Shown: piece after piece, positions 415-60,506 of the stretch
Layout of the letters: the number at the start of each line of letters is the position of its first letter
Position numbering within the stretch: position 1 is the stretch's first letter
Source of the DNA: a virus
Lineage: Duplodnaviria > Heunggongvirae > Uroviricota > Caudoviricetes
Reading direction: 5' to 3' (one strand)
IMG/VR virus record: IMGVR_UViG_3300020451_002055
DNA length: 64,000 nt
The notes under the pieces: generated by a model
What the model was told of the DNA's origin: nothing
The model's database searches: none
What the model saw: the letters and a program-made list of their open reading frames with translations, nothing else
Position numbers and translations under genes: made by a program

Positions 415-1059
415 TCAGTCGAGAGTGCCCGCGATGACAACCTCATTCCTCTCGACGCAGCGGAACCATGTCCCCTTGAACCGCATGGCCCAATCCATAT
501 GCCAATGACCGAAATACCAGAACTTCGGCTGATGGATGTCTAGCATCTGATTCAGAGCGATCGCAGTCCTGTTCGACTCTGCCTCGCTTGAACCGTCAGG
601 GTTGATGGAACGAGCGGCCCCAATCAGTGCGCGATACAAGTAAAACGGAGCGTCATGGGTAACGACGATCTCGGGCTTGACCTGCTCGTAGAGCGTCAGC
701 ATGTCGCAGAGGTCTTGATAGCTCAACTGCTCGTCCTCCCACCACATGGGATGACAGTTGCGCTTCGCTGCAAGAGCCATACGACGCTTGATGTCGAAGT
801 CGGGCGTCTTGGCTCCGCTGACGTAGAAGATGCCCTTGTCGGTTACGCCATAGTCGCCGAGGTATGACGGATGGGCTCGGGCGACCTCGGGATCATCATG
901 ATTCCCGCGGATTGCCTTTCCGTTGTCAGGGAACTCGGGGATGGCTTGATGCGTCATCCCCCAACCCAGATCCCCGACCTGGATCCACCCATCTAACCCG
1001 TCGCCCAGGTCAAAGAGCAGATCAATATCGCCATGTACATCGCCGATGATTGCTGTCAT
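415..1059 (-). CDS. calcineurin-like metallophosphoesterase (lambda-phosphatase-type Ser/Thr phosphatase)
   Basis: GDVHGD, GDLxDRG-like (GDLGW) and GNHD motifs in order. The probable ATG start is MTAIIGDVHGD at 1059; the track start at 1110 is a TTG. Confidence 0.8.
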   Translation of the reverse strand: MTAIIGDVHGDIDLLFDLGDGLDGWIQVGDLGWGMTHQAIPEFPDNGKAIRGNHDDPEVARAHPSYLGDYGVTDKGIFYVSGAKTPDFDIKRRMALAAKRNCHPMWWEDEQLSYQDLCDMLTLYEQVKPEIVVTHDAPFYLYRALIGAARSINPDGSSEAESNRTAIALNQMLDIHQPKFWYFGHWHMDWAMRFKGTWFRCVERNEVVIAGTLD

Positions 1060-1313
1060 GCTGACCAACCTATCGGCGAGAGCTTCCACTCGATCGCAGG
1101 CGGTCACCAAATGACTTCAGCAGCCTGATGCGTCGAATCATCTCGGGCGAGAAAGTGGCAAAGACGCCGCTGCTCGATCTGCAGAGCAGCCTGTCGCCAA
1201 ACTCTCGGACCGGAGTCCAATCGGTGAGATCGCCTCGAAGAGGGAACGGAAAGCTTGATGTGTCGAACGTACTCATGACCGACAGTTGGCCGCAAGCGCT
1301 GTCGGTGTCAGGA

Positions 1314-2833: not shown

Positions 2834-4426
2834 TCAAACATCCAGAGCGGCAAGCTCAGACTTGATCCGACGCAGAACCGCCTGAGTATCGTACTGCTTG
2901 TCGATCTCGGTCAGCGTATTGCCCCATGTCTCGTTATGAGCATCGACCCGAGCATGAGCAGCTTCGTGCTTGGCGATCGCCAACAGAGCCAACAGGTCGC
3001 CCTTGTTTGTCAAACGATACCTGGTCTTGGTTCCATCGACCGGGTTGAGACAGAAGACATGGCAGCCGCCCGTATCGAGATGGCAGCCCTCCTGCCAGCC
3101 GAAGACCCAACCAACCGACCAGGAAATGTCGCGGTAGTTGAACTCATCAACCAAGACCCGAAGAGCCTCTTCGATGGCGATCTTCCATGCGATCAGCAGA
3201 CGGTAAGCCTCGCGTCCGCGCTTGTAGGGGATGTACTCGTCGCCGCTCGTCTTGACCTCATGAGTCCAGTTCTCCGGGTTGAAACGATCGACAACCTTGT
3301 CCATCGCAGGATCGCCGGTCTCGTTGATGATCATGACATCGAAGAGATCAGGAGCAAACCGGTCGCCCGGCATCGGCTCGGAGCGAACCTCGATGACGCG
3401 AGCCGTAGGAGAGATCGGAGCTAAGGCAGCAGAGCGAGGAGTAACGACATCGCCTCCGCTGATCGTAGCGATCGGAGAGAACTCGCCCTCAGTCTCGATC
3501 GGAGCAGTCGATCCGGCCTTGCCTTGACGATGCTCGTCATCAAGCTGACGCTGCTCATCGGTCCGCTTGCCAAGCATCATCATACGACCGGAGCCGCTGA
3601 TGATACGACGAGTCTCGCGGTTGCGATCGCGGAGAGCGCTCCGGTCATCGACCGTAAGCTCGTCGATCCAACGATTGACCTCAGAGCGGAAATCGCCAAC
3701 GAACTCGTTGCGGTTGGCAGCCAAAACCTCTCGGGCACGATCGGGATCAATCTCAACAACGACCTGCTTCTTGCAGTTGACATGACGCCAGAACATCATG
3801 AGACCGCCGACCCGAAAGATGACGCGGTTGGCAAACGTGCCCGAACGATTGACATGGATGCCAGCGAACGAAAGCTCGCGGACGCGACGACCTCGGTCGA
3901 TGTAGTCGGAGAAGACCTCGCCGTTGATGCGAACCATGACGCCAGAGCGATCCAAAGAGCAGCAGCGGAGATACTCATTGAGATGACGACGCATCTCGTC
4001 GATGGTGGTATCCGACATCCAAACTCGAATGATGCAGCCGTCCTGACGCTCGATGTCGTCGATCATGTACTCGCCGCCCGTGCCGCGGACATGATTGGTC
4101 AGGGTCTCGATTTCGTACTTGTCATGACCGAAGCATGTCATGATGCGGGCTCGACCGAAGCCTCCGATGGAACCTCCGCCAGTCTTGGTCGTCTCGCCAA
4201 GAGCGAAGTAAACTCGGTCGAGGACATCGCGCGTCATGCCGCAGCCATTGTCTGCGACAGAGATGCGAATCTGTCCGCCTCCGCAATCGGTCAGGCTGAC
4301 CTCGATGCGGTTGGCTCCGGCATCGACAGAGTTCTGCAGAAGCTCTCGCCAGAAATCCGGCTTCCAGTTGTAGAGCTTCTTCCGCTCGTCGATGAAGAAC
4401 TGATGGGGAACTGTAATCGTCGGCAT
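2834..4426 (-). CDS. GHKL-superfamily ATPase (MutL/MORC/Hsp90-like Bergerat fold) with C-terminal HExxH
   Basis: N-box ELLQNSVDAGA, G1 box DNGCGM and G2 box GGGSIGGFGRA within the first ~100 aa. The C-terminus has HEAAHARVDAH (HExxH). AAAGGAG RBS lies upstream of the ATG at 4426. Confidence 0.7.
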   Translation of the reverse strand: MPTITVPHQFFIDERKKLYNWKPDFWRELLQNSVDAGANRIEVSLTDCGGGQIRISVADNGCGMTRDVLDRVYFALGETTKTGGGSIGGFGRARIMTCFGHDKYEIETLTNHVRGTGGEYMIDDIERQDGCIIRVWMSDTTIDEMRRHLNEYLRCCSLDRSGVMVRINGEVFSDYIDRGRRVRELSFAGIHVNRSGTFANRVIFRVGGLMMFWRHVNCKKQVVVEIDPDRAREVLAANRNEFVGDFRSEVNRWIDELTVDDRSALRDRNRETRRIISGSGRMMMLGKRTDEQRQLDDEHRQGKAGSTAPIETEGEFSPIATISGGDVVTPRSAALAPISPTARVIEVRSEPMPGDRFAPDLFDVMIINETGDPAMDKVVDRFNPENWTHEVKTSGDEYIPYKRGREAYRLLIAWKIAIEEALRVLVDEFNYRDISWSVGWVFGWQEGCHLDTGGCHVFCLNPVDGTKTRYRLTNKGDLLALLAIAKHEAAHARVDAHNETWGNTLTEIDKQYDTQAVLRRIKSELAALDV

Positions 4427-4481
4427 CCTCGACTCCTTTCGGGATACGCTGCAATCCTAGCATATTCGGTGATGGGCTGCC

Positions 4482-4495
4482 CACCCATCTTTCTC
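4482..4495 (+). promoter_or_regulatory. conserved intergenic 14-mer CACCCATCTTTCTC (copy 1 of 4), candidate promoter element
   Basis: Exact 14-mer located 55 nt upstream of the minus-strand start at 4426 and downstream of two terminators. Confidence 0.35.
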
Positions 4496-4502
4496 TCCGG
4501 GC

Positions 4503-4525
4503 GCAAATAAAAGGGGCAGAGCCCC
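4503..4525 (-). terminator. putative rho-independent terminator
   Basis: Minus strand GGGGC-TCT-GCCCC followed by TTTTATTT. Confidence 0.4.
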
Positions 4526-4610
4526 TTGGAGAAGTCAACGCACCATCCAGCAACAAGCAAGGAGAGGTGGTCTGAATGCTTCTTTTGAGTGCCCGCAGGT
4601 TGGTAGAGAG

Positions 4611-4669: not shown

Positions 4670-5257
4670 TTAGCCGATGGCCTTGAGAGCGGCCTTGGCC
4701 TCCCTCGAACCGGCAGCGGTCAGGGCGTAGACGCCGCGGCTGACGCGCTTGAGGTGGCCGTCGTTGACGAGGTTGCCGAGGGCCTGGTTGACGACCGTCC
4801 GCTGGCCCTTCTCGTCGCCGGTGAAGACGTAGTTGCAGGGCTTCGTCTGGACAGCGGCATGGACCTCGGAGATGTTGAACTCGGTCCCGCGCTCGCTCTG
4901 ATCCATCGAAATCAGGATGCAGTTGGAGAGGGTAGCCGCGCCGCCGCCGCGCTTCTCGCTCGCGCCGTTGCTGGTCCTCGTCGAACGCCGACGCGCCTTG
5001 GGAGCGGGCTCGGGATCCTCGTAGAGGTAGTCGATGGCCGAGAGATCGGGAGCCTCGAACTCCTCGACGCCGAACTCAGCGAGGCCGTCGTCGATCTGGC
5101 CCAACTGACCGGCGAGAGCCGTCATCTGCTCCATGACCGAAGCGCGAGCCTCGTTCAGATCGTTCATCGCCGCCTCGCGACGCTCGTTCGCGCCGGTGAT
5201 GGTCGCCGAAATGTCCAGGGTCGCCGCCGACCCACCGTTCTGGTTCTTGCCCGCCAT
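4670..5257 (-). CDS. hypothetical coiled-coil / basic protein, possible winged-helix DNA-binding C-terminus
   Basis: ATG at 5257 (MAGKNQ) with AAGGAG RBS. Coiled-coil N-terminus, Arg/Lys-rich linker and C-terminal globular domain. The track's longer N-terminal extension is unlikely. Confidence 0.5.
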   Translation of the reverse strand: MAGKNQNGGSAATLDISATITGANERREAAMNDLNEARASVMEQMTALAGQLGQIDDGLAEFGVEEFEAPDLSAIDYLYEDPEPAPKARRRSTRTSNGASEKRGGGAATLSNCILISMDQSERGTEFNISEVHAAVQTKPCNYVFTGDEKGQRTVVNQALGNLVNDGHLKRVSRGVYALTAAGSREAKAALKAIG

Positions 5258-5512
5258 GGTTTGTCTCCTTGTTGACTTGCGGACTCTGATGCTGCGTTGG
5301 ACGACGTTGCCCAACGCTGTTGACGAGATACATTTGATCTCGCCAGTATTCGGTGAACATCTCAATCTAGAACAGCCCTTCTGAGAAGTCAAGAAAATCT
5401 TTCTGAGAATCCTCAACTTAGCCGTTAGGGTTCCGTCCAGTCAGCCTAGATAAGAAAAGCCCCTCCAACCTTAGATCAGAGGGGCTTGAGAGTTTAGAAG
5501 ATGCGTGCCTGC

Positions 5513-6805
5513 TTAGTTGAGCAAAGTCAGGTCGCGCTCGGTCTGACGATGAGGCAGGACGAACTCATTGACCCGAGCCGCCATGCTGGTCTCGAACGCC
5601 GTCCGGTTGAACCCGTGATCGGCAACGCCGGTGATACCGCCGTCATACATGGCGAACGTCAGAGCCTTGTCCTCGGCGTTGCGGCGAGCCGCCATCGAAC
5701 CGAGGCCCTTGGCGGCATCGGTCATCAGGTTAAAGACATCCCATTCGGTTGCCAACTCGTCATCGCCGTAGGCGTTCTTGCCGAGGTCGTGGCAACGCTC
5801 GTAGAACTCCTCGTTGATGTCGCCGCGGTCGCGGATGATGCCGAGGACATCGAACGCCGACTTCTCGCCGTCGCCGATCTGACGATGCTGCAACGCCTGA
5901 AGCGAAGTAGCGATCAGACCCGCAAACGGGAATGCGATCGAAGCCATCGAATCGAGCGATGCCTTGACATCCTCGAACGTCGTGGAACGCCGCATCTGGA
6001 ACGAACCGAACGCGAAGTCCTGATCCGTGCAGCCGTTGGCGCACCACATTCGCCAGACGCCGATGGATGCCCGAGGCATGAACGCCCGGACATCGGACGT
6101 AGAGAGGTTGAGCATCGTGTAGAGCCGCTTGGTCGGCTCTCGCTCAGACTCGATCATGATGGGGTTGCCGAAGAGGATTCGGAACTCCATGCCGCCCTGA
6201 CTGTTGGACTCGAACATCTCAACGCCGCGGATGATATCTCCGAAGCGCTCCATGATCGCCCGCATCGCGTTCGCGACGAAGATGTTGGAATCGGTACGGT
6301 CGATGTCGTCGCGCATAACGCCCTCGACGATCCGGCCCGTCCCGCTGTCGTTCGTGCGGAACATCAGGTTGAAGTCATCCGAACGGCGTGCCCGGAAGAA
6401 CGACGCGAAGTCGGCGAGGAAGTGGCGAGGGCCATGCTCGCCCATCTTCTGATAGCGGCTGTAGCCGCCCTTGGCATCCATCAAGCCCGCAAGCTGATTG
6501 ACAGCCCGGTTGGACATGGGAATCGGGCCATGCTCTCGAACATGGAGCCCGAGCCCGGCATCGATGTCGGGCGCGATGCTGAAGAGGGAATCGGAAGAGG
6601 GATCGATCTGGAGCCCAAGATGCTCGCCGCCCTCGACAAGCAAGTCCTGGCGACCATTGGCGATGCGGTTGAGCCGATTGAGACAATCGGTCGGGTGCAT
6701 CATACGGCGGGTCACGTTGTCCGTGACATCGACAGGGCGATCGTCCGTGACGAAGCGCTCCTGATCCCCTTCCATGATGGTCGGGATTTCTGCATACGTC
6801 GGCAT
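5513..6805 (-). CDS. hypothetical protein (430 aa)
   Basis: ATG at 6805 with AGAAAGGAAACC RBS. Protein-like; no motif recognised, and a capsid assignment cannot be supported. Confidence 0.5.
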   Translation of the reverse strand: MPTYAEIPTIMEGDQERFVTDDRPVDVTDNVTRRMMHPTDCLNRLNRIANGRQDLLVEGGEHLGLQIDPSSDSLFSIAPDIDAGLGLHVREHGPIPMSNRAVNQLAGLMDAKGGYSRYQKMGEHGPRHFLADFASFFRARRSDDFNLMFRTNDSGTGRIVEGVMRDDIDRTDSNIFVANAMRAIMERFGDIIRGVEMFESNSQGGMEFRILFGNPIMIESEREPTKRLYTMLNLSTSDVRAFMPRASIGVWRMWCANGCTDQDFAFGSFQMRRSTTFEDVKASLDSMASIAFPFAGLIATSLQALQHRQIGDGEKSAFDVLGIIRDRGDINEEFYERCHDLGKNAYGDDELATEWDVFNLMTDAAKGLGSMAARRNAEDKALTFAMYDGGITGVADHGFNRTAFETSMAARVNEFVLPHRQTERDLTLLN

Positions 6806-6997
6806 TAGGTTTCCTTTCTGAGAGTGGGTCCGTCTTAGCCGAACTGATTGCCGGACAACGCTGCCCGGCTGACAGCATACAGTATAGCAGACTTGGATTC
6901 GGTGAGCAAGCCACCCGTCAAATAGACAACGCCCGGGCATAGTGCCCGAGCGTTGCGCCCAAAGGATGCTTGTCTGAGGCAGCCTAGGGTCTGGTCT

Positions 6998-8368
6998 TTA
7001 CTCGGCCTCAGCCTCAGCCTCAGGCTGGCGAACAGCCGGGCGACCGCTGGCTCCCTCGATCGCGGCGAGGATGCTCGCAGCCGTCGAGCCGGACGAATGG
7101 CCGCCCGTCCGAGATGAGAGACGGGTCAGGTCGGGCTTGTCAGGGGCGGTCATCACCTTGCCCTCGTCAAGCTCGATCGTCTTGGGGCCATGCTTCCAAC
7201 GGACAGGCTTCAACTTCTCGCCGCCGCGATTCTTGTCGAAGATCAGGTTGACCCGAGCGTCGTTATGCTCATCGGGAGACCCGAGAATGATTGCATCGAC
7301 CGAGTGCCCGAACATCGACGAACCCTTCAACTCGCCCGAGGACTTCGAGATATGCGAGATGATGAACGCCGTGCACCCGGTTTCAACCAGCATCTCGTTG
7401 AAGCGGAGCATGCCATCGCGAACTCGACCATCCGGACCCTGGAACTCATGGATCATGTCCTTCGAGTCGATGACCAAGAAATCAGGTTCATCTCGGCGGA
7501 CAAGGAACTCGACCTCATCGAGCAAACCGACCTGTGCGAAGTCAACGGCGACCTGACCGGGCTTCCAAACGCCTCGCAGGAACATCGAGCGGAAGCGGGC
7601 CATCTGGGGAACCTCAGACTGGATGTAGAGGCCGGTATGTCCGCCGAACTCAACGCCGTCCTCGCGGGTCTGACGCGGGCCGCACATGTCGCGGAGCAAA
7701 CGAACCATCAAGCGGGTCTTGCCCGTTCCCTTCTTCGCGCCGAAAGCATACGAGAAGCCGCGAGCGATGCCATGAGACTCGACCTCGACAGGCTTGCGCT
7801 TGCCCTTGGGAACGATCTCATCGACAGTCGTGCCGAACCATTGATCGAGAACCGGATGGAAGGTCGGGATACGCTCGATCGGCACATCCTCGCCCTCTTC
7901 CCAACTGACAGTCTCGGCTCCGCCGGTTCGGGCAACAGCCGAACTCCGGGCCTCAGCCGCCCGCCAACCGTCCTCGACCTTCTTTCGGGTCTGGCGAACC
8001 TGCTCGCGGAGACGCTGGTTGCGGAGCTTATGGTACGCATCCGCATCGGTCAGCGTATCGCCGTCGAGCAGAGCGGCCCAAGCCTTGCGGCCCTTCTCGC
8101 TCGTGCTGCGCTTGATCTGATCGTTGATGTAAGCGACCCGATCGCCAGTCGTGGGGATATCCCAACCATACTGGTCGGCGATCGCGTTCCGCTCGCCATC
8201 GTCGAGGATCGCGTCGAGATTGTCGCGCTGACGAAGCAGATGCTCCATGATCTCGGCGTTGGCATTCGCGCCGACCATATTGTGCATCGTGATCAGATTC
8301 TCGATGAGTGCCTGATTGCTCAGAGATGCGGTTCGAAGGGCGGGCTTGGGCTTTGACTGACGGGCCAT
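6998..8368 (-). CDS. DnaB-like / RecA-fold replicative helicase ATPase
   Basis: Walker A FGAKKGTGKT, Walker B FLVIDS, SQL-like IISHISKS and H4-like DKNRGG. ~200-aa N-terminal domain. ATG at 8368 with AAAGGAG RBS. Confidence 0.55.
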   Translation of the reverse strand: MARQSKPKPALRTASLSNQALIENLITMHNMVGANANAEIMEHLLRQRDNLDAILDDGERNAIADQYGWDIPTTGDRVAYINDQIKRSTSEKGRKAWAALLDGDTLTDADAYHKLRNQRLREQVRQTRKKVEDGWRAAEARSSAVARTGGAETVSWEEGEDVPIERIPTFHPVLDQWFGTTVDEIVPKGKRKPVEVESHGIARGFSYAFGAKKGTGKTRLMVRLLRDMCGPRQTREDGVEFGGHTGLYIQSEVPQMARFRSMFLRGVWKPGQVAVDFAQVGLLDEVEFLVRRDEPDFLVIDSKDMIHEFQGPDGRVRDGMLRFNEMLVETGCTAFIISHISKSSGELKGSSMFGHSVDAIILGSPDEHNDARVNLIFDKNRGGEKLKPVRWKHGPKTIELDEGKVMTAPDKPDLTRLSSRTGGHSSGSTAASILAAIEGASGRPAVRQPEAEAEAE

Positions 8369-8442
8369 GGGAAACTCCTTTGGGTTTGGGTTGCGTGCCT
8401 CAGACGACCTACAGCCCTTGCCTCTCGGTTTCGGTGAACCCA

Positions 8443-9165
8443 TCAGCCCTCCGCCTCTGCTTTGACCTTCTCTCCTGTACTGGTAGTAGAGGCCTTGCCG
8501 ACAGCCCTCTCAACCGCAACAGCCATGCTCTCCGAGCCGCCAGTACCCTCCGTCACCGAATATCCCGCCCGAATCTTGACTGACGGAACATACGACCTGC
8601 GACGAATTTCGCGGATGGGAAGAACTTCCTCCCCAGTCGGAATCCCCGTCCGCAAACGGAGACGCATCTCCTGCTGAGTCCCAAGGACATCAATGCAGGC
8701 ATTCAACTGAGCGAGCTTCAGCCCATAAGGGTTGGCTCCGCCCAATCGCTGAAGAACACGGATGTTCTGATGAACCTTCTCAATGACGTTCTTCCCAGTC
8801 ACTTGCGACCGGAGAGGACGCCCCGTGAACGACTCCCATGGCGTCTTGCCGTCCTTCCCAACCAAGGAAGGATCAGTCATGACCTCCATGAACTTCGCCC
8901 AAAACGCAGCAAACGAATGCTCCTCGTTCTCGCCCAACAGAGAGAGCGTCTCAACGATGCCCCAGTAACCGCCTCCTCTGCGGTAAGGAGCAACGAAGCG
9001 CCCCGCCTCGTCTGCTTGGCCTCGGAACTTCGCCTGATCATCCATGCTCATGTGGTGGCGACGAACTCTGCCCATCTCTCCGGTCCTTGTAGGTACTGTC
9101 TCAGCACGCTGACTAATAGGCAATGCCGCTTCAGCAGCGTGATCCGAGTAAACTGTCTTGCTCAT
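8443..9165 (-). CDS. hypothetical protein, paralog of 58338..58889
   Basis: Shares KDGK...L(Q/T)R(L/S)GG(A/S)NPYG(L/K)(K/R)L and YW.I blocks with the 58338 ORF. Probable ATG at 9165. Confidence 0.45.
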   Translation of the reverse strand: MSKTVYSDHAAEAALPISQRAETVPTRTGEMGRVRRHHMSMDDQAKFRGQADEAGRFVAPYRRGGGYWGIVETLSLLGENEEHSFAAFWAKFMEVMTDPSLVGKDGKTPWESFTGRPLRSQVTGKNVIEKVHQNIRVLQRLGGANPYGLKLAQLNACIDVLGTQQEMRLRLRTGIPTGEEVLPIREIRRRSYVPSVKIRAGYSVTEGTGGSESMAVAVERAVGKASTTSTGEKVKAEAEG

Positions 9166-9273
9166 TGTTGATGCGTCCCGTAATCGGTGTCCGACCAGGC
9201 TCCAAGTCCTGCTAACGCCAGACGCATTCAACACCCATCTTACTTGATCGCTATTACACCAGCGAGCCTCCTT

Positions 9274-9287
9274 CACCCATCTTTCTC
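9274..9287 (+). promoter_or_regulatory. conserved intergenic 14-mer CACCCATCTTTCTC (copy 2)
   Basis: Exact repeat in the divergent intergenic region between the minus gene ending at 9165 and the plus Fic gene. Confidence 0.3.
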
Positions 9288-9324
9288 TACCCGCGAATTC
9301 CCGCACTCATCTTACCCGAAGCCG

Positions 9325-9338
9325 CACCCATCTTTCTC
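9325..9338 (+). promoter_or_regulatory. conserved intergenic 14-mer CACCCATCTTTCTC (copy 3)
   Basis: Exact repeat 103 nt upstream of the plus-strand start at 9441. Confidence 0.3.
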
Positions 9339-9440
9339 CACTGTCAACCAATAGAGACAAACCGGTCCGAATAGCCCTTGGGCATCGACTTCGCGGAACA
9401 AATGCGGAGAGATTGGGGCGGCTGACTTCCATTATACCAA

Positions 9441-10250
9441 ATGTCGGACCATGCGTGTCCGGACCATGAAAAAATCGTCACTCGGTCTGCAGATTTTTGT
9501 CGATACACAGGTATGACTGAACTCGATCCGACAACCATGCGCGTATTCCCAGAGCCGTCCCAGGACACGCTCATCGCATTCATCTACCATACCAACCGAA
9601 TCGAACGTATCCCGATGAATAAGCGCGACATCGAGGACGCCATCGCCCAAAGAGAACCAAACCCCTACGTCGAAGGACATCTCCGCGCCATCACCCTCGT
9701 ACAACAACTCGCTCCCGATCCAAAACTACTGCCCGAACGGGTAAACACAATCTTCGAGTTCGATGAGAAGTTCCCATGGCTCAAAAGACTCCACCGCAAC
9801 CTCATGAGACCGGTCGCCGAGTTCGGAGTCATGACCCTCGACCCCTCAATCATCCATCCAACCGATGTCGGCTCCTACCGACAAACAGCCAAGTCCATCA
9901 GAACCGAACGAGACAACATGATCATCGATGTCGAAATGCCAGGACCATTGACCATCAGAGAACATCTCCGAGATTGGGCCAACGACCTCTGCTCCTTCCA
10001 TAATGACATGCGACGAACCATCGAGTACGGTCGCTACTCAGACAGCGATACCGAAGCCCTCGTAGATAAGGCCTACGAAGCAAACCTCAAGCTGTCCTGC
10101 ATCAAACCATTCACGGATGGCAGCAACAGAACAGGACGACTCGTTGAGAATCTGCTCAGACTCAACTGGGGACTGCCTTGGAAAATCATCAGCCTCGATG
10201 ACAAAGATCAACTACTCGATGACCTACGCAATATGCAATCGAGATTTTAG
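9441..10250 (+). CDS. Fic/Doc (Fido) family protein with degenerate active-site motif
   Basis: CIKPFTDGSNRTGRLVENL aligns to HPFx(D/E)GNGRxxR with H->K, N->S and G->N substitutions. It is the only plus-strand gene in this 10-kb stretch. Confidence 0.5.
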   Translation: MSDHACPDHEKIVTRSADFCRYTGMTELDPTTMRVFPEPSQDTLIAFIYHTNRIERIPMNKRDIEDAIAQREPNPYVEGHLRAITLVQQLAPDPKLLPERVNTIFEFDEKFPWLKRLHRNLMRPVAEFGVMTLDPSIIHPTDVGSYRQTAKSIRTERDNMIIDVEMPGPLTIREHLRDWANDLCSFHNDMRRTIEYGRYSDSDTEALVDKAYEANLKLSCIKPFTDGSNRTGRLVENLLRLNWGLPWKIISLDDKDQLLDDLRNMQSRF

Positions 10251-10337
10251 CAACTACATCTGACTGTTAGTAAGGCGTTATTGAACAACTGCCTTACAAA
10301 TTGGGCACTTGCTAGAAATCCTTGCCAAAAGTCTGTC

Positions 10338-10351
10338 CACCCATCTTTCTC
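10338..10351 (+). promoter_or_regulatory. conserved intergenic 14-mer CACCCATCTTTCTC (copy 4)
   Basis: Exact repeat immediately 5' of the direct-repeat array. Confidence 0.3.
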
Positions 10352-10375
10352 CGTCACCGAAATGGATGTCAGGAG

Positions 10376-10740
10376 TTCGTCGTACAGTGGAACATTCCCG
10401 TACAGTGGCAGGATATTACCCGATCATCCCATTCGGTGCTAGAACCTGATGTCATTCGGTGCTACCTCGTACAGTGGCCCGATTCGGTGTTAGACTATAC
10501 ACGAAAGCAAAACCCTTCGAATCCCGAAGGGGAGCCTGAGGGGATGAGGGATCACAGAGGTTCCTCTGCTCTCCCATTCGGTGCTAAGAAATGAAAAATG
10601 AGGGTACGGACGATTCGATGCTTGCATCGAAGCGGCTGCTGAGTCCGAAGGACGAAGCGTACCTCATCCATTCGGTGCTACGCCTCGATTCTCTCGGCAT
10701 AGACGAGAGCTACAATTCTCTCCCATTCGGTGCTAGAAAA
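10376..10740. repeat. direct-repeat array: 6 copies of CCATTCGGTGCTA-type 13-mer plus 3 copies of CGTACAGTGG
   Basis: 13-mer copies at 10428, 10453, 10480 (degenerate), 10573, 10667 and 10722. The two outer units extend to CTCTCCCATTCGGTGCTA(A)GAAA. Spacers are irregular (about 12-80 nt). Embedded perfect hairpins TTCGATGC-TT-GCATCGAA and GGTACG...CGTACC lie near 10602-10664. Confidence 0.7.
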
Positions 10741-10776
10741 CGGAGAACCTAGCATGAGGAGACTATCGGTGATAGT

Positions 10777-11511
10777 CTACTCATCCTTAAGCAGCCTCTT
10801 CTTATCTTCCTCAAACTTCTCTACCTGAGACAGAAGACTCATAGATCTTTGGGTAGGATCAGTGCGCGAACGCAATTTCACAACGCTCTCCGAAGGTATC
10901 CATTCCGCGGGAAAAGTTGAACTAGCCAACACCAACTGATTACCCTTACCCAAAGCATGACGAGTCAAATGAGTATAGAAACTCTTACGACTCTCGTCGT
11001 CCAAACCCCTGTCCCAATCATCTACCAAGATAACAGAATCCCGCACATCCCTCATATGCAAATCGTAGACTACAGGGAAGACAGAACATACAGATTCAGA
11101 CAACTGACTGCCCCGTCGTACAGTGGAACGAGTTACGCCAGTACGCTCTGCTGAATAATAAACGATACCGTTTTTGACATGAGGTTTGTCGCCAACGCTT
11201 ACGTCCGCAGCCTTCGCCAGAGTCGCGCTCTTGTCCAAACGACCCCTACGAATATGAACTCCGCAAATCTCTCGCCCTACCTCGTAGTCAATACGAAGCA
11301 TGTCAGCTACATAAGGAAGTTCCGTACTCCCGCCAGACAAAACTGAACTGCTCCAACCACGAGCTATGCTGCTCATGATGTAAGACTTGCCGCTACCGTT
11401 CTTCCCAAAAAGCATAACGATATTCAGAATGTTACCGTCAGAGTCTTTGAACTCTAGGTTTGTGTCCTCGATATCCTTGCTTCCCCGGATATGGTAGCCT
11501 CGTAGTCTCAT
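10777..11511 (-). CDS. minimal ABC/SMC-like ATPase (AAA_21-like)
   Basis: Walker A LFGKNGSGKS and Walker B/D-loop ILVDDWDRGLDDES. 244 aa. Contains an exact copy of the 15-mer GTCGTACAGTGGAAC at 11115-11129, also found in the upstream repeat array. Confidence 0.65.
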   Translation of the reverse strand: MRLRGYHIRGSKDIEDTNLEFKDSDGNILNIVMLFGKNGSGKSYIMSSIARGWSSSVLSGGSTELPYVADMLRIDYEVGREICGVHIRRGRLDKSATLAKAADVSVGDKPHVKNGIVYYSAERTGVTRSTVRRGSQLSESVCSVFPVVYDLHMRDVRDSVILVDDWDRGLDDESRKSFYTHLTRHALGKGNQLVLASSTFPAEWIPSESVVKLRSRTDPTQRSMSLLSQVEKFEEDKKRLLKDE

Positions 11512-38523: not shown

Positions 38524-38745
38524 TCAGTTGGCCGCTATGATACTGCCATCCGGGTTGCACCTGTAGCGCTCAGATGTATCAACACCAGTAGGAGATCCAT
38601 CGCAGTTATGGAGCCGGTAAAGATTCGACTGGTTTCCATTCTTCAGAATGACTATCCAGATATTTGGAGCGGCCTCTACTATGTTTGCAATCGACTTGTC
38701 AGTCGTCATGATTTCTCCTGTTGTCTTAGCCCTTGAGAACAGCAA
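38524..38745 (-). CDS. small hypothetical protein
   Basis: 73 aa. Confidence 0.3.
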   Translation of the reverse strand: MLFSRAKTTGEIMTTDKSIANIVEAAPNIWIVILKNGNQSNLYRLHNCDGSPTGVDTSERYRCNPDGSIIAAN

Positions 38746-40006
38746 TAGGCTTGAGTTCGGTTTCGATATCTACAAGGTCTGCCTGATTCTCCATGACAGC
38801 ACCTACGTCTTTGTATGCAGTACCTAGCTCGTCATGAGCATTTCTGGTTCCGTATAGCTCAACATTTGCCTTGCCAAGCTGCGACTCTTGCGACGGGTCA
38901 ACACCCTCCTTGACTCGCCTCTTTGCCTCGGTCCTGCTGAAGTTACGACCCGAGCCATGAGAGCAACTGTTCATGCTGTCCTTGTTGCCCTTGCCCTTTA
39001 CGATGTATGACTTCGTAGTCATCGAGCCGGGTATGATGCCGATGGTCTGCGGGCGAGCAAGAGTCGCGCCCTTGCGATGGACCCATACATTCTCGCCGCC
39101 GTGATTCTCTTGAGCAGCGTAGTTGTGATGGATGTTGATGAAGTCGGCAAGAGGATTGGTCTGATGAACCTGATCTCTCAAGGCAGACTGAGCCGCTCTC
39201 ATCATGGCTGCTCTGTTCTGATACGCAAAGTCTTGAGCGATCTGCATCGCCTCGATGTAGTATTGCCCTTCCGCGCAGTCGATTGGAAGGTAAGCAAGGT
39301 CTTGGGTCTCAAGCTTACTGAAGTACCTTGAACAAATGGCCTTGGCAGCGTTATGGTGCTGCTTAGCGGTCTGAGCCCCATAGCCTCTCGAACCGCTATG
39401 GATCATGATCCATGCGATACCGCTGCTATCCTTCTGTAGCTCAACGAAGTGATTGCCGCCGCCGAGCGTACCTAGCTGACATCTGAATCGCTCAAAGTCA
39501 GGCGGAGCCTCGAACTTACCATGCTCGTCAGCCATGACAGCATGACGCTGAGCTAGTTCATCAGCAGCCTTCTTGAACTTGGGTTCGGAAAGAACATCTG
39601 CTTTGCCGCTATGCGACTTTCCTTCTCCATGAGGGATGAGTTCTTTCCACTCAACCATGAGCTTGCGAACATCTAGGTCGTTTGCTAGAACGCCCGAGTT
39701 CCACGCGCACATGCCGCATCCAATATCAACGCCAACAGCATTGGGGATGATCGCTCCCTTAGTCGGAAGAACGCAGCCAATGGGTACGCCCTTGCCGTAA
39801 TGAGCATCCGGCATAAGAGCAATATGACCATGAGCGCAAGGCAATCGAGCTACCATGCCTACTTGTAGTCGAGTGTTCTCGCCTATAGCAGGTATGTAAC
39901 GTCCTAGTTCATCGGAATACTCTACCGCCCATATCTTGACCGGTCTTCCTCCCGTTTCCTCCGGAGGTAGAACTGCCATTCTGCTCTTTGGGTTCTTCTT
40001 GCTCAT
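38726..40006 (-). CDS. rtcB: RtcB-family RNA 3'-phosphate/2',3'-cyclic-phosphate ligase
   Basis: GGGNHF, HSGSRG and SCSHGSGR signature blocks with conserved metal-binding Cys/His. Confidence 0.9.
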   Translation of the reverse strand: MSKKNPKSRMAVLPPEETGGRPVKIWAVEYSDELGRYIPAIGENTRLQVGMVARLPCAHGHIALMPDAHYGKGVPIGCVLPTKGAIIPNAVGVDIGCGMCAWNSGVLANDLDVRKLMVEWKELIPHGEGKSHSGKADVLSEPKFKKAADELAQRHAVMADEHGKFEAPPDFERFRCQLGTLGGGNHFVELQKDSSGIAWIMIHSGSRGYGAQTAKQHHNAAKAICSRYFSKLETQDLAYLPIDCAEGQYYIEAMQIAQDFAYQNRAAMMRAAQSALRDQVHQTNPLADFINIHHNYAAQENHGGENVWVHRKGATLARPQTIGIIPGSMTTKSYIVKGKGNKDSMNSCSHGSGRNFSRTEAKRRVKEGVDPSQESQLGKANVELYGTRNAHDELGTAYKDVGAVMENQADLVDIETELKPIAVLKG

Positions 40007-40424: not shown

Positions 40425-41441
40425 TTAGTTTTTGATTCCACTTGCAGAGGTAAAGCTAACGGTGCCGATCGTCGTTTCCACCTTCATCCGAGGCCAATCG
40501 AAAGACTTCTTGTCCTTCTGTCGAATGGCGGTCATCAACTGATGCGTAAGCTGAGTATTGATCCGGTCCATTCTCATATTCTTGTTGAGACGCTTTGCAA
40601 CGTCTCTAAAATACGCGGCCTGAACAGAGTCGGACTCTTCTCTCAAAAACGATGCCTCGATCATGATGCCGCTGTCATAGGTTGTTTCTTTGGCTTTGAG
40701 CCATGCGACTCTAGAATCAATGATGCGAGAGATGTCCCTGAGCTTGAACGCAGCTTCGCTGGCATGAAGAGAGCATTGAGGATAAAGCTCTTTCAGAACA
40801 GGCAGAACATCATGACGCAATCTATTACGGGTAATGGTCATGTCAGAGTTCGTAACATCCTCATGCCAGGGGATGTCATTGCATTCACAAATCTCGATAC
40901 AATCAGCCTTTGAGATACGGAGCATTGGTCTAATGACCTTGCAGTTGATCTTGGTCTCGACAGGAATCCTTGATGAAGGCGGAATGGCGGCAAGACCCGT
41001 GATGCCGCTACCTCTGCAGAGACGCATGAGCAAAGTCTCAAGCTGATCGTCGGCATGATGAGCCGTAGCGATAGTGCCGTTCTCTCCGGCGCTAATAGCA
41101 AGGGACTGATAGCGGACTTCTCTTGCTTCGGCTTCCGTAGAACAGTTGGTCAGCCGGGACTTGGGCTCATACCAGGTTGCCATGTTGAACAAATCGCATC
41201 GGCGGCATGCTTCAAGGGCCGCATCATGGCTCTTGTTTTCCTCTTCTGCCGACCTGATTCCATGGTACACAAAAACAGGTTGCAAGTCCGCTTTTATTCT
41301 TGACAGGCAGAATAGCATGGCAGCGGAATCTACGCCACCGGACAATGCAACAACAACCTGCTTACGAGAGTCATGCAGTCGTCGGAAATCAGAGATAACC
41401 GTCTCAATCGCCTGTCTTGGTTGAGCCATGTTCAGGTCCAA
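40425..41441 (-). CDS. tilS: tRNA(Ile)-lysidine synthetase
   Basis: PP-loop SGGVDS near the N-terminus, and TAHHADDQLETLLMRLCRGSG. Confidence 0.85.
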   Translation of the reverse strand: MDLNMAQPRQAIETVISDFRRLHDSRKQVVVALSGGVDSAAMLFCLSRIKADLQPVFVYHGIRSAEEENKSHDAALEACRRCDLFNMATWYEPKSRLTNCSTEAEAREVRYQSLAISAGENGTIATAHHADDQLETLLMRLCRGSGITGLAAIPPSSRIPVETKINCKVIRPMLRISKADCIEICECNDIPWHEDVTNSDMTITRNRLRHDVLPVLKELYPQCSLHASEAAFKLRDISRIIDSRVAWLKAKETTYDSGIMIEASFLREESDSVQAAYFRDVAKRLNKNMRMDRINTQLTHQLMTAIRQKDKKSFDWPRMKVETTIGTVSFTSASGIKN

Positions 41442-43359: not shown

Positions 43360-44025
43360 TTAACTCGCTTGATGTATCTGCTCTGCATGCTGCGGTCTCA
43401 GGTGGCTAGTCAAATCAAGACGATCAGCAACAAGCTTCACGATCCCATCCCAGTCGTCATAAGGCATAACGATGTAGCTGTCACTTCCAACGTACAGATC
43501 AAGCAGGCTGCGAATGTAGTCATCCATCCTTCGGGCCTTGTCTTCGTTTTCATATCTTCCCTTACCTACATACGGTCTGTCGCCTCGATCAAGAAAGATA
43601 TGCAAACCCGGATAGGCTTCCTCATGAAGCTCTGCAAGCGAAATGAGAGAGTTGAAGGTTTTGCTATGATACTTGCGGGCATACGCTGCTCCGAGGAATA
43701 GCGGCGAGTCGGTAAAGACATGCTGGACGCCAGCCCTTAGAGGTATCTCTTCCTTTCTCTGCTGATTTGCAAAGATGAAGACCTGATCGAATCCTTGCGG
43801 ACTGCGACCTTCCCATGCCCATTCCTTGACAAACTCTTGGATAAGCTCAAACTGAACATCAACAGAGCTATCGACACACATCCTCTTGAACTCTGCGAAC
43901 AAGTCAGATGCAGTTGTACTCTTGCCTGTTCCGGGTCCGCCATACAAGTTGATTCTTCTGATATCAGAACTCAATGCTGTACCTCTTCCTTTTACTCTTT
44001 GCGTAATCGCTTTCTTTGATGACAA
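43360..44025 (-). CDS. P-loop kinase (nucleotide or polynucleotide 5'-kinase-like)
   Basis: Walker A LYGGPGTGKSTTASD at the N-terminus; 221 aa. Confidence 0.55.
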   Translation of the reverse strand: MSSKKAITQRVKGRGTALSSDIRRINLYGGPGTGKSTTASDLFAEFKRMCVDSSVDVQFELIQEFVKEWAWEGRSPQGFDQVFIFANQQRKEEIPLRAGVQHVFTDSPLFLGAAYARKYHSKTFNSLISLAELHEEAYPGLHIFLDRGDRPYVGKGRYENEDKARRMDDYIRSLLDLYVGSDSYIVMPYDDWDGIVKLVADRLDLTSHLRPQHAEQIHQAS

Positions 44026-44803
44026 GCAGTTCTACTGCTTTGTCTTTCTTCGATGTCTGCATGTGCTTGACGACTTCTTTGACTTCAAAATGACAACCAG
44101 GATACAGGTCTCGTATCTGTTCAGAATCGTAGTAAGAAACTACAAAGCTGCCTTCAACATCGAGCATCTGTTTCGCAAGTTCCTCATGGTCAAAGCCATC
44201 TTGCTTATTGACTTGGTAGAAGTCCTTTTCTACGTCAAGATATGGAGGGTCCATATAGAACAGAGTGGAAGGGCTGTCCCATTTACGGAGTATCTCTCTA
44301 TAGTCGAGATTCTCAACGTAAACGCCTCTCATGGACTCTGCCATGGAAATGATGTCTTGCGGCAGCTTTCCCCATGTATATGCGACGTTTTCGCCCCTTC
44401 TAGCTATGCACCATGTCTCTGTCTCTTTGCCGAATATCGATTGACGGTTGTAGATGGCAAACTGACGAGCCCTTTCTACGGGATCATCTTGATCGAAGTC
44501 TCGATCTGACATGATGTAGCTGCGAGCTTTGTCGAAGTCTTCTCTGCTGTAAGGAGACAGGCTGATAGCTCTAGCGAGGTCTTCGGACTCATCTCTTAGG
44601 ACGCGAAAGAAGTTGCAAAGATGACCGTCGAGATCATTGAACACCTTGCGATACTTCGTGCCCGAAGGAATCGGCATAGTAAAACCGACTGCGAATGATC
44701 CTGAGAAACCTTCGCAGTAGACATCATGAGGAGGCAGATTACTCTTGATCCAAGAAGCGATTTTGTTCTTGCCTCCAACTCTTTTGACGATAGTGTTTGC
44801 CAT
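43964..44803 (-). CDS. Dam-family N6-adenine DNA methyltransferase
   Basis: ATG at 44803 (MANTIVKRVGGK) overlaps the upstream stop (TAATG). Motif I EGFSGSFAV, motif IV DPPY. Confidence 0.8.
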   Translation of the reverse strand: MANTIVKRVGGKNKIASWIKSNLPPHDVYCEGFSGSFAVGFTMPIPSGTKYRKVFNDLDGHLCNFFRVLRDESEDLARAISLSPYSREDFDKARSYIMSDRDFDQDDPVERARQFAIYNRQSIFGKETETWCIARRGENVAYTWGKLPQDIISMAESMRGVYVENLDYREILRKWDSPSTLFYMDPPYLDVEKDFYQVNKQDGFDHEELAKQMLDVEGSFVVSYYDSEQIRDLYPGCHFEVKEVVKHMQTSKKDKAVELLVIKESDYAKSKRKRYSIEF

Positions 44804-60434: not shown

Positions 60435-60506
60435 GCGGGCGTAACTCAATGGTAGAGTGTCAGCCTTCCAAGCTGAATGTTGAGGGTTCGAGTCCCTTCG
60501 CCCGCT
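60435..60506 (+). tRNA. tRNA-Gly (anticodon UCC), CCA not encoded
   Basis: Hand-folded cloverleaf. Acceptor GCGGGCG/CGCCCGC, D arm ACTC/GAGT, anticodon stem TCAGC/GCTGA with loop CTTCCAA, and T arm GAGGG-TTCGAGT-CCCTT. Confidence 0.85.

Follow-up and report, generated by a model that had tools for sequence, protein, structure and literature searches.

Wss1 and SPRTN remove proteins that are stuck on DNA and play a central part in the stability of eukaryotic genomes; both work with separate ATPases. To our knowledge, bacterial and phage equivalents of these proteases are barely known. In characterised ATPases of the MutL/MORC/Hsp90/rIIA class, the binding of ATP shuts a lid and brings the N-terminal domains together as a dimeric clamp. 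Yeast Wss1 (WLM; PF08325) and the sister type SPRTN/Spartan are DNA-dependent proteases (PMC4559962, PMC9240642). ArdC, an anti-restriction protein of plasmid R388 that acts upon entry of the DNA into a new host, couples a module that targets nucleic acid, via a disordered loop, to a zincin of the Spartan-like type; its protease activity is not needed for anti-restriction (PMC7213743). The effectors described for paraMORC proteins are nucleases and helicase partners in restriction-modification (R-M) operons, not peptidases (PMC2292703), and the rIIA proteins are phage GHKL ATPases (PMC7824862). No description of a fusion between a GHKL ATPase and a Wss1-type protease was found in the literature.

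A GHKL ATPase gene with a C-terminal zincin module

The window, which is the whole 64,000-nucleotide stretch of DNA that was analysed, encodes such a fusion protein on its minus strand, from an ATG start codon at 4426 bp (Table 1). The original prediction had given this open reading frame without naming a strand and had placed a unit of terminator, motif and ribosome binding site upstream of it. The frame exists and so does the unit, which consists of a hairpin with a T-run, a repeated 14-mer and an AGGAG. The hairpin is terminator-like and would end the upstream transcript. The 14-mer was present in four exact same-strand copies (at 4482 bp, 9274 bp, 9325 bp and 10,338 bp; 4.4–10.4 kb), and five matches were found at up to two mismatches (the four exact copies and one with two mismatches) against 0.69 expected; it is a candidate promoter or operator of the gene block that holds 2834–4426 bp. 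The strings quoted from the translation in the prediction were all located: ELLQNSVDAGA (residues 28–38), DNGCGM (59–64), GGGSIGGFG (83–91) and AIAKHEAAHARVDAH (483–497).

Table 1. Features of the GHKL-WLM fusion gene and its upstream region (positions in the window, bp)
Feature	Coordinates	Strand	Evidence
Complete gene, GHKL-WLM fusion protein	2834..4426	-	530 aa + stop codon; ORF list, sequence
Bergerat-fold GHKL ATPase domain, residues 1–170	3917..4426	-	Pfam, profile matches, hhalign, AF2
N box ELLQNSVDAGA, residues 28–38	4313..4345	-	E28, N32, D35 invariant (46/46); aligns with MutL ELVENSLDAGA
G1 box DNGCGM, residues 59–64, adenine-binding Asp59	4235..4252	-	D59, G61, G63, M64 invariant; aligns with MutL DNGCGI
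ATP-lid / G2 box GGGSIGGFGRAR, residues 83–94	4145..4180	-	G77, K81, G88, G89, G91, A93, R94 invariant
Second alpha/beta domain (transducer-like), residues 171–298	3533..3916	-	Foldseek fold alignment; invariant R239
Disordered, length-variable linker, residues 299–349	3380..3532	-	pLDDT <50 over 299–347; no conservation in alignment
Wss1/WLM-like zincin metalloprotease module, residues 350–530	2837..3379	-	
Catalytic motif HEAAHARVDAHNE, HExxHx5H(D/N)E, residues 487–499	2930..2968	-	Conservation; alignment on Wss1 HELTHNVHGEHDSSF
Shine-Dalgarno AGGAG	4433..4437	-	6 nt before ATG; read from sequence
Recurrent 14-mer GAGAAAGATGGGTG	4482..4495	-	Repeat search, alignment of copies
Intrinsic-terminator-like hairpin AAGGGGCTCTGCCCCTT then TTATTT	4511..4527	-	Hairpin + T-run

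Analysis of the first 170 residues revealed Pfam matches to HATPase_c_3 (37.2 bits, cut-off 25) and HATPase_c (34.9 bits, cut-off 26.4) and profile matches to MutL, MORC2 and HtpG. With hhalign, MutL was matched at 96.8% over 69 columns and T4 rIIA at 89% over 141 columns, the latter including a helix before the N box (...Y...RELxxNxxDA) that is in the Hsp90/rIIA style. An N box of the form ExxxNxxD, a G1 box DxGxG, a Gly-rich G2/lid and a curated profile, by which the GHKL ATPase superfamily is recognised, were all present. In the 46-member family alignment, to which the conservation figures refer, E28, N32, D35, D59, G61, G63, G88, G89 and G91 were invariant in 46/46 sequences, which puts the GHKL identity far beyond chance. 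Within the N box we take Glu28 to be the catalytic residue and Asn32 to bind Mg, as is established for GHKL proteins. The ATP lid is preceded by LGETTK (residues 76–81). The AF2 model had a pLDDT mostly >90 over this domain, with low values at residues 86–88, as expected of a mobile lid. The N-terminus of the ORF is a GHKL ATPase of the MutL/MORC/Hsp90/rIIA class; the earlier assignment to the MutL/MORC/Hsp90 type, not the GyrB type, fused to a C-terminal HExxH domain, was supported.

Foldseek (E about 1e-10) aligned MutL LN40, TRAP1/Hsp90 and MORC2/3/4 over 324–395 columns of the model. The two-domain N-terminal fragments of MutL (LN40) accounted for 324–341 columns (target TM 0.50–0.56), MORC and Hsp90 covered both domains over 340–395 columns, and about 40 phage rIIA proteins aligned over ~300 columns. 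The sequence similarity to MutL ended at 69 columns of the hhalign alignment, and the match of the second domain is a fold alignment only. R239 was invariant in this domain and R205 and R232 were conserved in at least 90% of sequences; a conserved basic segment (residues 260–298), net positive in 91% of members, closes it. From the model, residues 171–298 can be described as transducer-like. In the GHKL-S5 subgroup, to which the ATPase modules of MutL, Hsp90, MORC and topoisomerases belong, a second domain of the S5 fold provides a conserved Lys/Arg that reaches the gamma-phosphate. The original prediction had seen no topoisomerase transducer, which holds for the sequence; in the model a second alpha/beta domain (about residues 171–298) co-aligns with the two-domain ATPase modules of MutL LN40, Hsp90 and MORC. 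An equivalence of R239 with MutL K307 was not supported by the sequence, where the EIDP...(K/R)xE likeness was non-significant (score 26, shuffle mean 26.5), and is kept only as a conjecture. The linker that follows varied between 23 and 80 residues across the family.

The C-terminal module was modelled with a pLDDT of 96.4. A profile of this domain on its own had three matches in all in the PDB, every one of them to Wss1 (E 0.0085–0.13), with HEvaHx5HdedF aligned on the Wss1 motif. Pfam WLM (gathering score 26) was matched at E ≤ 0.01 by 11 of the 46 relatives and YgjP-like by nine; when six relatives were scanned singly against WLM, four scored 26.0–27.3 bits and two 25.6 and 25.9 bits. The protein itself had no match to Pfam WLM. 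H487 and E488 were invariant, H491, H497 and E499 were present in at least 90% of sequences, and HExxHx5H(D/N)E was retained in 234/242 relatives, so that the HExxH site, previously called potential, is kept family-wide. The zincin fold and a metal site in which the third His lies six residues past the second are those of WLM/Wss1-like proteins. Sequence and model identify the C-terminal domain as a zincin of the Wss1/WLM type and predict it to be a protease. It is very improbable that it has another activity, as a YbeY-like metal-dependent nuclease, or none, as a catalytically silent binding domain. The YbeY site is HxxxHx5H and lacks the general-base Glu; a YbeY-like reading is unlikely because E488 is invariant and HExxHx5HDE matches Wss1 residue for residue, and a silent domain would hardly have kept the motif in 95% of full-length relatives.

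Comparison with described families

No end-to-end alignment of the fusion protein with a type II topoisomerase or a chaperone was found. Structures of Hsp90, TRAP1, MutL and MORC aligned only to the N-terminal ~300–390 columns (query-normalised TM 0.32–0.37), and the Pfam families DNA_gyraseB, Toprim and HSP90 had no match in the protein. A type II topoisomerase subunit (GyrB, ParE, T4 gp39 or Topo VI-B) was rejected, as transducer and Toprim profiles were absent and the NCBIfam Topo VI-B model scored 13.6 bits against a cut-off of 274; topoisomerases gave only weak N-terminal fold matches. Hsp90, HtpG and TRAP1 were the top Foldseek matches for the N-terminal and middle parts and share with the protein the helix before the N box, LG.T.K and a GxFG lid. 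Membership of the Hsp90 family was nevertheless rejected: NF010683 scored 20.3 bits (cut-off 455), the fold match was limited to the N-terminal and middle parts (query TM 0.32–0.34) and did not extend end to end (query TM about 0.33), and the C-terminal dimerisation domain is missing.

MutL provided the closest sequence match in the N and G1 boxes (profile E 2e-7), besides the LN40 fold match, and has the same layout of an ATPase, a disordered linker and a C-terminal metal-dependent effector. The protein differs from MutL in lacking DNA_mis_repair and MutL_C, in its score with NCBIfam TIGR00585 (38.8 bits against 180, over residues 27–69 only), in a G2 box and pre-N-box helix that are closer to Hsp90, MORC and rIIA, and in an effector with the zincin protease fold, not an endonuclease/dimerisation domain; neither MutS nor MutH was found as a partner, and the MutL family was rejected. 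With MORC and paraMORC, whose MORC2/3/4 members were among the top fold matches, it shares a GHKL domain followed by a second domain; that group also occurs in mobile and conflict contexts with varied C-terminal effectors. The S5 signature GhXhhpXXRhl and an R-M operon are both absent here, and VRVNGxxMF (G208), the one conserved Gly-hydrophobic stretch in the family alignment, lacks a conserved Arg at +8; the MORC family was therefore rejected too.

The rIIA proteins likewise have a phage-encoded, structurally similar GHKL module followed by a different domain, which contradicts the earlier claim that stand-alone MORC-like GHKL ATPases are uncommon in phages. The fusion protein is shorter than T4 rIIA (530 compared to 725 amino acids), has no rIIB partner and ends in a conserved zincin domain. 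It missed PHROGs 612, 2979, 3661, 30832, 24904 and 38678 at E ≤ 0.1, all of which T4 rIIA (PHROG 612) matched, no rIIB-like neighbour was present in the neighbourhoods examined, and the rIIA family was rejected. A GHKL module of the Hsp90-like or rIIA-like type does not necessarily work on DNA, a point against a DNA-based reading. Comparison with the known defence systems in PADLOC gave only weak matches to the GHKL part (REase_II, 17 bits; MzaB, 13.8 bits), and these were also rejected.

The likeness to Wss1 and SPRTN/Spartan consists of the zincin fold and HExxHx5H. Identity to Wss1 was 10–12%, and the protein falls below detection by Pfam WLM. SIM, VIM, SHP and ubiquitin-like elements are absent, and the module has an additional N-terminal subdomain of ~50 residues as well as two C-terminal helices. 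Its ATPase partner lies in cis on the same chain and is of the GHKL, not the AAA+, type; the protein is viral, not eukaryotic, and its DNA dependence is putative. ArdC differs in that its N-terminal domain binds ssDNA independently of ATP and its third metal ligand is Glu (gluzincin); no sequence relationship with it was detected.

Distribution and gene neighbourhoods

A 100% identical protein (P0001) was found on a Tara Oceans marine metagenome contig. Searches revealed 134 homologues, about 100 of them full length, and a search with the C-terminal domain gave 240 clusters, nearly all of 490–560 amino acids with this domain at the C-terminal end. The domain is almost confined to the GHKL-linker-zincin architecture, and longer relatives (780–1240 amino acids) had no additional Pfam domains. 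The N box, the G1 box and HExxHx5H were kept jointly in 193/203 full-length relatives. Both domains can thus be identified with intact catalytic residues, and the two centres are retained together in one architecture. The family comes from uncultivated huge phages and is of phage origin, and the gene described here is from a marine huge phage. When the protein and two divergent members were compared by tblastn with 50,697 GenBank phages, nothing matched. The fusion is conserved in hundreds of huge-phage sequence clusters, and its identification annotates a sizeable family of 'ATP-binding protein / hypothetical' entries without a match among the genomes of cultured phages.

The gene had been described as directly downstream of a replicative helicase. 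An ATPase gene is indeed nearby, but two genes (5513–6940 bp and 4670–5416 bp) lie between, and what had been called a helicase can be identified only as a RecA-fold ATPase of the RadA/DnaB/KaiC type, so that 'replicative' was unsupported. A search for co-conserved neighbours, as the original prediction had proposed, revealed synteny with the RadA/DnaB-like ATPase within the query clade (8–9 lineages, across 34–68% identity), and the gene was present in 7/7 contigs that were fetched via a neighbour gene. The neighbours in this clade include a Fic protein and a calcineurin-like phosphoesterase, which fit host takeover as well as replication. Across lineages no universal partner gene was found, and neighbourhoods were conserved within this one clade only. 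Outside it they were heterogeneous: the gene lay between an NlpC/P60 tail lysin and Baseplate_J in a tail/baseplate module (L059), near PcfJ and an SNF2 giant protein (L060), near a photolyase (P0088), and near an integrase on Bosea plasmids. One further relative lay near a 5′-3′ exonuclease, and some lay near M15 peptidases and lytic transglycosylases. The linkage to replication is therefore not general. A SUMO-like domain in the neighbour at 5513–6940 bp, tempting because Wss1 is SUMO-linked, was rejected; its per-domain independent E-values were 0.18 and 13, the score was inflated by a di-SUMO target, and the match lay partly upstream of the probable start M46.

Possible functions of the fusion protein

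We tentatively favour a reading in which the ORF encodes a single-chain, two-engine enzyme, an ATP-controlled protease that acts on DNA-bound proteins. Module 1 (residues 1–298) would comprise the Bergerat ATPase and the transducer-like domain with its basic end. ATP-driven dimerisation would clamp it, most likely on DNA, and position or license the protease of module 2 (residues 350–530), which would cut proteins bound or cross-linked to DNA; these could be host restriction/defence complexes, nucleoid proteins or roadblocks ahead of the phage replisome. ATP hydrolysis would then reset the enzyme. The design would be the layout of MutL with the nuclease exchanged for a protease. By analogy, we infer dimerisation, DNA association and coupling of the ATPase to the protease, and we infer that DNA-bound proteins would be the substrate. 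The coupling is favoured by the near-confinement of the zincin domain to this architecture and by the joint retention of both centres. A link to DNA is hinted at by the basic segment, the fold kinship with Wss1 and Spartan, the clade synteny with the RadA/DnaB-like ATPase and the precedent of ArdC. It is possible, though doubtful, that the protein is a viral 'protease-MutL', an ATP-gated, DNA-encircling GHKL clamp with a Wss1-type protease that strips or destroys host proteins (restriction/defence proteins, nucleoid proteins, stalled enzymes) at the onset of replication; if true, this would be the first known ATP-coupled DNA-protein-crosslink or roadblock protease outside eukaryotes. In this family a Wss1-like protease and an ATPase of the MutL/MORC/Hsp90 class are permanently joined in a single chain. 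The family could offer a simple model for an ATP-driven clamp that licenses a DNA-associated protease, could be a new class of phage enzymes for host takeover or anti-defence, and could give an evolutionary link by which the GHKL-linker-effector design of MutL is able to carry non-nuclease effectors.

A conflict factor of the rIIA/Hsp90 kind that works without DNA is a conceivable but uncertain alternative. Its GHKL module would sense or bind a protein client, such as an abortive-infection/defence protein, and the WLM protease would cleave it, which would protect the infection as T4 rIIA does against Rex. Over the N-terminal ~300 residues the match to about 40 rIIA structures is as good as that to MutL, and the hhalign match to T4 rIIA includes the Hsp90/rIIA-style helix; for the stand-alone zincins of jumbo phages that are SprT-like or ArdC-like, host proteins have been proposed as targets (PMC7824862). 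The Fic and phosphoesterase neighbours also point this way, and the want of a fixed partner across lineages is as expected of autonomous takeover genes. Against this stand the misses to all six rIIA PHROGs, the lack of a rIIB-like neighbour, a C-terminal module that is constant, not variable, across the family, and nearest protease-fold kin that are DNA-dependent enzymes. Additionally, synteny is stable within the clade and the gene tracks the divergence of its neighbours, unlike fast-turnover counter-defence genes.

A narrower form of the favoured DNA-directed protease, dedicated to DNA-protein-crosslink or roadblock repair at the replisome as a strict functional analogue of Wss1-Cdc48 or SPRTN-p97 with GHKL in place of AAA+, is unlikely. 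The WLM fold and motif, the synteny with the RadA/DnaB-like ATPase, the single relatives near a photolyase and a 5′-3′ exonuclease, and the partnership of Wss1 with the ATPase Cdc48 (PMC4559962) are consistent with it, but replication genes are linked to it in a single clade, with tail modules or integrated elements elsewhere, the neighbouring 'helicase' is at most a putative replicative enzyme, and GHKL ATPases, unlike Cdc48/p97, are not unfoldases. A role in the virion, either as an assembly chaperone-protease whose Hsp90-like ATPase holds structural proteins for processing by the zincin, or as a packaged and injected protein, seems quite improbable. The tail/baseplate position in L059, the relatives near M15 peptidases and lytic transglycosylases, and TRAP1, Hsp90 and HtpG among the top fold matches would suit it. 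In the query clade, however, the gene lies in no structural module, an Hsp90 middle or C-terminal domain is absent by sequence (NCBIfam HSP90, 20 bits against 455), and the proteases known to mature proheads and tails are of other families.

Domain organisation and family of the GHKL-WLM protein

Residues 27–115 of the protein, designated GHKL-WLM, matched the Pfam profiles HATPase_c_3 (37.2 bits, cut-off 25) and HATPase_c (34.9 bits, cut-off 26.4). N-terminal fragments of MutL were the best solved relatives by sequence (E-value 7e-5 for the single sequence, 2e-7 when the family profile was used), the match being limited to residues 26–70, and were followed by MORC2/3/4, PMS2 and HtpG. An alignment of 46 family members (27–70% identity; window protein numbering) revealed every ATP-binding motif to be invariant, the invariant residues being E28, N32, D35, D59, G61, G63, M64, G77, K81, G88, G89, G91, A93 and R94. 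From established GHKL knowledge, E28, N32 and D59 are the general base, the Mg-binding residue and the adenine contact respectively. The peptides quoted in the original prediction, ELLQNSVDAGA (28–38), DNGCGM (59–64), GGGSIGGFG (83–91) and AIAKHEAAHARVDAH (483–497), were all found. A topoisomerase subunit was ruled out by Pfam and NCBIfam profile searches.

The AlphaFold2 model (mean pLDDT 86.5) contained a Bergerat domain (approximately residues 1–170) followed by a second alpha/beta domain (approximately 171–298). Foldseek against the PDB retrieved TRAP1/Hsp90, MutL LN40 and MORC2/3/4 at E-values of approximately 1e-10 over 324–395 columns, with a target-normalised TM of 0.50–0.56 against two-domain MutL fragments. 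No obvious transducer had been predicted from the sequence, whereas these two-domain alignments suggest, inferentially, that the modelled second domain is transducer-like. By hhalign, E. coli MutL aligned with the family over 69 columns only, and the alignment of the segment around MutL K307 with the invariant R239 was no better than shuffles. The same approximately 300 N-terminal residues matched around 40 phage rIIA proteins among predicted viral structures (E-values 1e-11 to 1e-8), and T4 rIIA by hhalign (89% probability, 141 columns). Although the fold is rIIA-like, GHKL-WLM matched none of the six rIIA PHROGs matched by T4 rIIA; the module is therefore a GHKL ATPase of the MutL/MORC/Hsp90/rIIA class and a member of none of those families. 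The MutL/MORC/Hsp90 type originally proposed is borne out by the Pfam matches, the MutL, MORC and HtpG sequence matches and the Foldseek relatives.

Residues 260–298 were net positive in 91% of members (mean charge +4.9). The linker that follows (299–347) had a pLDDT below 50, was unconserved and measured 23–80 residues depending on the family member. Beyond it lies a family-wide metal site, H487-E488-x-x-H491-x5-H497-(D/N)-E499, in which H487 and E488 were invariant and H491, H497 and E499 were conserved at 90% or above in the 46-member alignment; HExxHx5H(D/N)E was found in 234 of the 242 relatives retrieved. Several relatives matched Pfam WLM, the family of the yeast protease Wss1, at 25.6–27.3 bits, close to the gathering score of 26, and several matched YgjP-like metallopeptidase exactly in this region (11/46 and 9/46 respectively at E ≤ 0.01). 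A profile of the C-terminal module alone gave three matches at E ≤ 10 among 177,635 PDB sequences, all of them Wss1 (0.0085, 0.067 and 0.13), and the family HEvaHx5HdedF aligned onto Wss1 HELTHNVHGEHDSSF and HELTHNLFGPHDKKF. As sequence and structure agree, the C-terminal module is predicted to be a divergent WLM/Wss1-type zinc protease, a sharper assignment than the HExxH metal site first noted. The invariant E488 argued against a YbeY-type nuclease site.

A full-length search returned 134 relatives, approximately 100 of them end-to-end (500–560 aa), which where named were 'hypothetical' or 'ATP-binding protein'. Exhaustive phmmer searching of 1.84 billion representatives with the C-terminal module gave 240 clusters at E ≤ 1e-3, with 107 remaining at E ≤ 1e-10; almost all were 490–560 aa with the zincin at the C-terminal end, so the protease module occurs essentially only in the GHKL fusion. 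The N box, G1 and HExxHx5H were retained together in 193/203 relatives of at least 450 aa and, judged from sequence, two intact catalytic centres are co-retained across the family. Longer relatives (640–1240 aa) kept an HE(V/C/I)TH site and had no additional Pfam domains. Long variants (750–1240 aa) with the same GHKL N-terminus and an HExxH site carried large unannotated insertions and were encoded by IMG/VR contigs (L031, L033, L034), Bosea megaplasmids (L047/L048) and Rhizobium/Agrobacterium (P0105–P0117).

A Tara Oceans marine metagenome contig encoded a protein 100% identical to that of the window. Relatives were encoded by 29 viral contigs of IMG/VR, the largest 498 kb long, and by metagenome contigs of 98–467 kb rich in small ORFan genes; a few adjoined integrases in integrated elements of Rhizobiales megaplasmids. 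A search of 185,579 species genomes yielded only 4 loci, and tblastn with three family members gave no match in 50,697 GenBank phage records. GHKL-WLM is of phage origin. No description of a GHKL-zincin fusion was found in the literature, nor was one mentioned in surveys of MORC/paraMORC (PMC2292703) and jumbo phages (PMC7824862). GHKL ATPases and WLM proteases are each of a known kind; judging by the literature and libraries searched, their fusion and the concept of a MutL-like machine bearing a protease are new. For annotation, the window protein can serve as the first example of a huge-phage family, as yet uncharacterised, in which a GHKL ATPase of the MutL/MORC/Hsp90/rIIA class is fused to a predicted WLM/Wss1-type metalloprotease. 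The original observation is confirmed, and its core interpretation is supported and sharpened.

Possible modes of action

Like MutL, GHKL-WLM has an ATPase, a flexible linker and a metal-dependent effector. In MutL, MORC and Hsp90, ATP drives N-terminal dimerisation into clamps. Wss1 and SPRTN cleave DNA-bound proteins in a DNA-dependent manner, together with an ATPase (PMC4559962, PMC9240642). By analogy, ATP binding would close a GHKL-WLM clamp, probably on DNA and aided by the basic segment, and the closed clamp would position or license the protease to cut DNA-associated proteins, which may be host proteins of restriction, defence or the nucleoid, or roadblocks to the replisome. We put this reading forward tentatively, at somewhat under an even chance. 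A mobile-element precedent for the design is ArdC of conjugative plasmids, in which a DNA-binding module is joined to a Spartan-like zincin and the protease activity is dispensable for anti-restriction (PMC7213743).

A DNA-independent, rIIA/Hsp90-like protease that selects clients among host defence proteins is a possible but less probable alternative. A narrower variant of the clamp reading, a repair enzyme dedicated strictly to DNA-protein crosslinks at the replisome, is improbable. Less probable still is a chaperone-protease for assembly, or a virion protein that is ejected. No virion structural gene was recognised among 20 window ORFs (most among the larger ones) scanned against PHROGs. 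In L059, a 154-kb metagenome contig, a 32%-identical member (8001–9533) is flanked by an NlpC/P60 tail lysin of 830 aa and by Baseplate_J, the latter followed by a protein of >2000 aa; in view of this setting, some members may be associated with the virion or ejected. That the C-terminal domain is not a protease at all seems very unlikely beside the Wss1 matches. The clamp-licensed protease acting on DNA-associated proteins is the reading that we prefer.

Gene neighbourhood and other window content

Features of the window in and around the GHKL-WLM block, and other genes
Feature	Position	Strand	Remarks
AAA ATPase	10777–11511	-	first in gene order
Fic-domain gene	9441–10250	+	opposite strand; same position conserved in 9 lineages
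Conserved unknown	8443–9306	-	
RadA/DnaB/KaiC-like RecA-fold ATPase	6998–8443	-	
Unknown, no known domain	5513–6940	-	family conserved in 5 lineages
Small protein	4670–5416	-	weak C-terminal AbiEi_4 antitoxin HTH match (17.7 bits, cut-off 25)
Terminator-like hairpin and T-run	4527–4511	- (coding)	5′ of GHKL-WLM
14-mer GAGAAAGATGGGTG	4495–4482	-	between hairpin and GHKL-WLM start
Shine-Dalgarno AGGAG	6 nt before ATG	-	read from sequence
GHKL-WLM	2834–4426	-	530 codons; start ATG 4426
Two unknowns	between GHKL-WLM and 415–1110		
Calcineurin-like phosphoesterase	415–1110	-	conserved downstream of GHKL-WLM in at least 6 lineages
RtcB RNA ligase	38726–40006		
QueC/PAPS-reductase-like protein	40425–41441		
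DNA methyltransferase	43964–44893		
Large HNH endonuclease	52553–54163		
tRNA-Gly(TCC)	60435–60506		

The gene block recurred in nine non-redundant lineages, in which GHKL-WLM identity was only 34–68%. Conversely, when loci were retrieved via the conserved unknown family (8443–9306), GHKL-WLM was encoded 2–5 kb downstream in 7/7 contigs whose homologue shared at least 38% identity, and was missing from one distant pair. These results mark GHKL-WLM as a stable part of this huge-phage clade that is passed on vertically. Members from outside it had other neighbours: besides the L059 member, with its tail lysin and Baseplate_J, there were members near PcfJ and an SNF2-type giant protein, a photolyase, a 5′-3′ exonuclease, or M15 peptidases and lytic transglycosylases. 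The co-conserved neighbours sought by the original prediction thus exist within the clade, but no partner gene is common to all lineages; the protein therefore probably works autonomously, and its linkage to the replication block is clade-specific. In Bosea the gene adjoins a tyrosine integrase, and the same integrated element carries DUF882 and lytic transglycosylase genes.

The hairpin with its T-run, the recurrent GAGAAAGATGGGTG and the AGGAG show that the predicted terminator-motif-RBS unit is real. Three further exact copies of GAGAAAGATGGGTG, all on the minus strand, were present at 9274–9287, 9325–9338 and 10338–10351 (four in total), and one with 2 mismatches at 9232–9245. The five matches at ≤2 mismatches compare with 0.69 expected, and 0/100 shuffles reached five. 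Exact coding-strand copies were confined to the 4.4–10.4 kb block, and GAGAAAGATGGGTG probably serves as a phage promoter or operator through which GHKL-WLM and the RadA-like block are co-regulated.

The gene taken in the original prediction for a replicative helicase (6998–8443) can be called only a RecA-fold ATPase: RadA/Sms was the best solved relative (E-value 1.4e-5), Pfam AAA_25 was at threshold, a DnaB-like PHROG matched at 7e-6 and the N-terminal approximately 200 residues had no match. The ORF at 5513–6940 is probably annotated too long, as orthologues and gene calls of 430–439 aa imply initiation at M46; an N-terminal match to SUMO2, which was weak, was examined and rejected. In GyrB and ParE the GHKL domains are targets of AMPylation by FicT-type toxins, and a functional link of the Fic protein to GHKL-WLM, though conceivable, is wholly speculative. 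A jumbo-phage review ascribes a counter-defence role to calcineurin-like phosphodiesterases of the T5 A1 type (PMC7824862).

TCCCATTCGGTGCTAGAA is directly repeated four times (10427, 10478, 10572 and 10721) and CGTCGTACAGTGGAAC three times (10378, 10465 and 11114). All copies lie between the Fic and AAA ATPase genes (10250–10777), near the RadA/DnaB-like gene, except the third of CGTCGTACAGTGGAAC, which falls inside the AAA ATPase gene. The arrangement resembles iterons and may represent a replication origin or a regulatory array. The RtcB, QueC/PAPS-reductase-like, methyltransferase, HNH and tRNA-Gly(TCC) genes are typical huge-phage auxiliary content. A second GHKL-superfamily protein (604 aa), whose C-terminal half is histidine-kinase-like, is encoded at 50148–51962 (minus strand) and matched PHROG 857 (4e-37) and PHROG 10912 'kinase' (1e-28).
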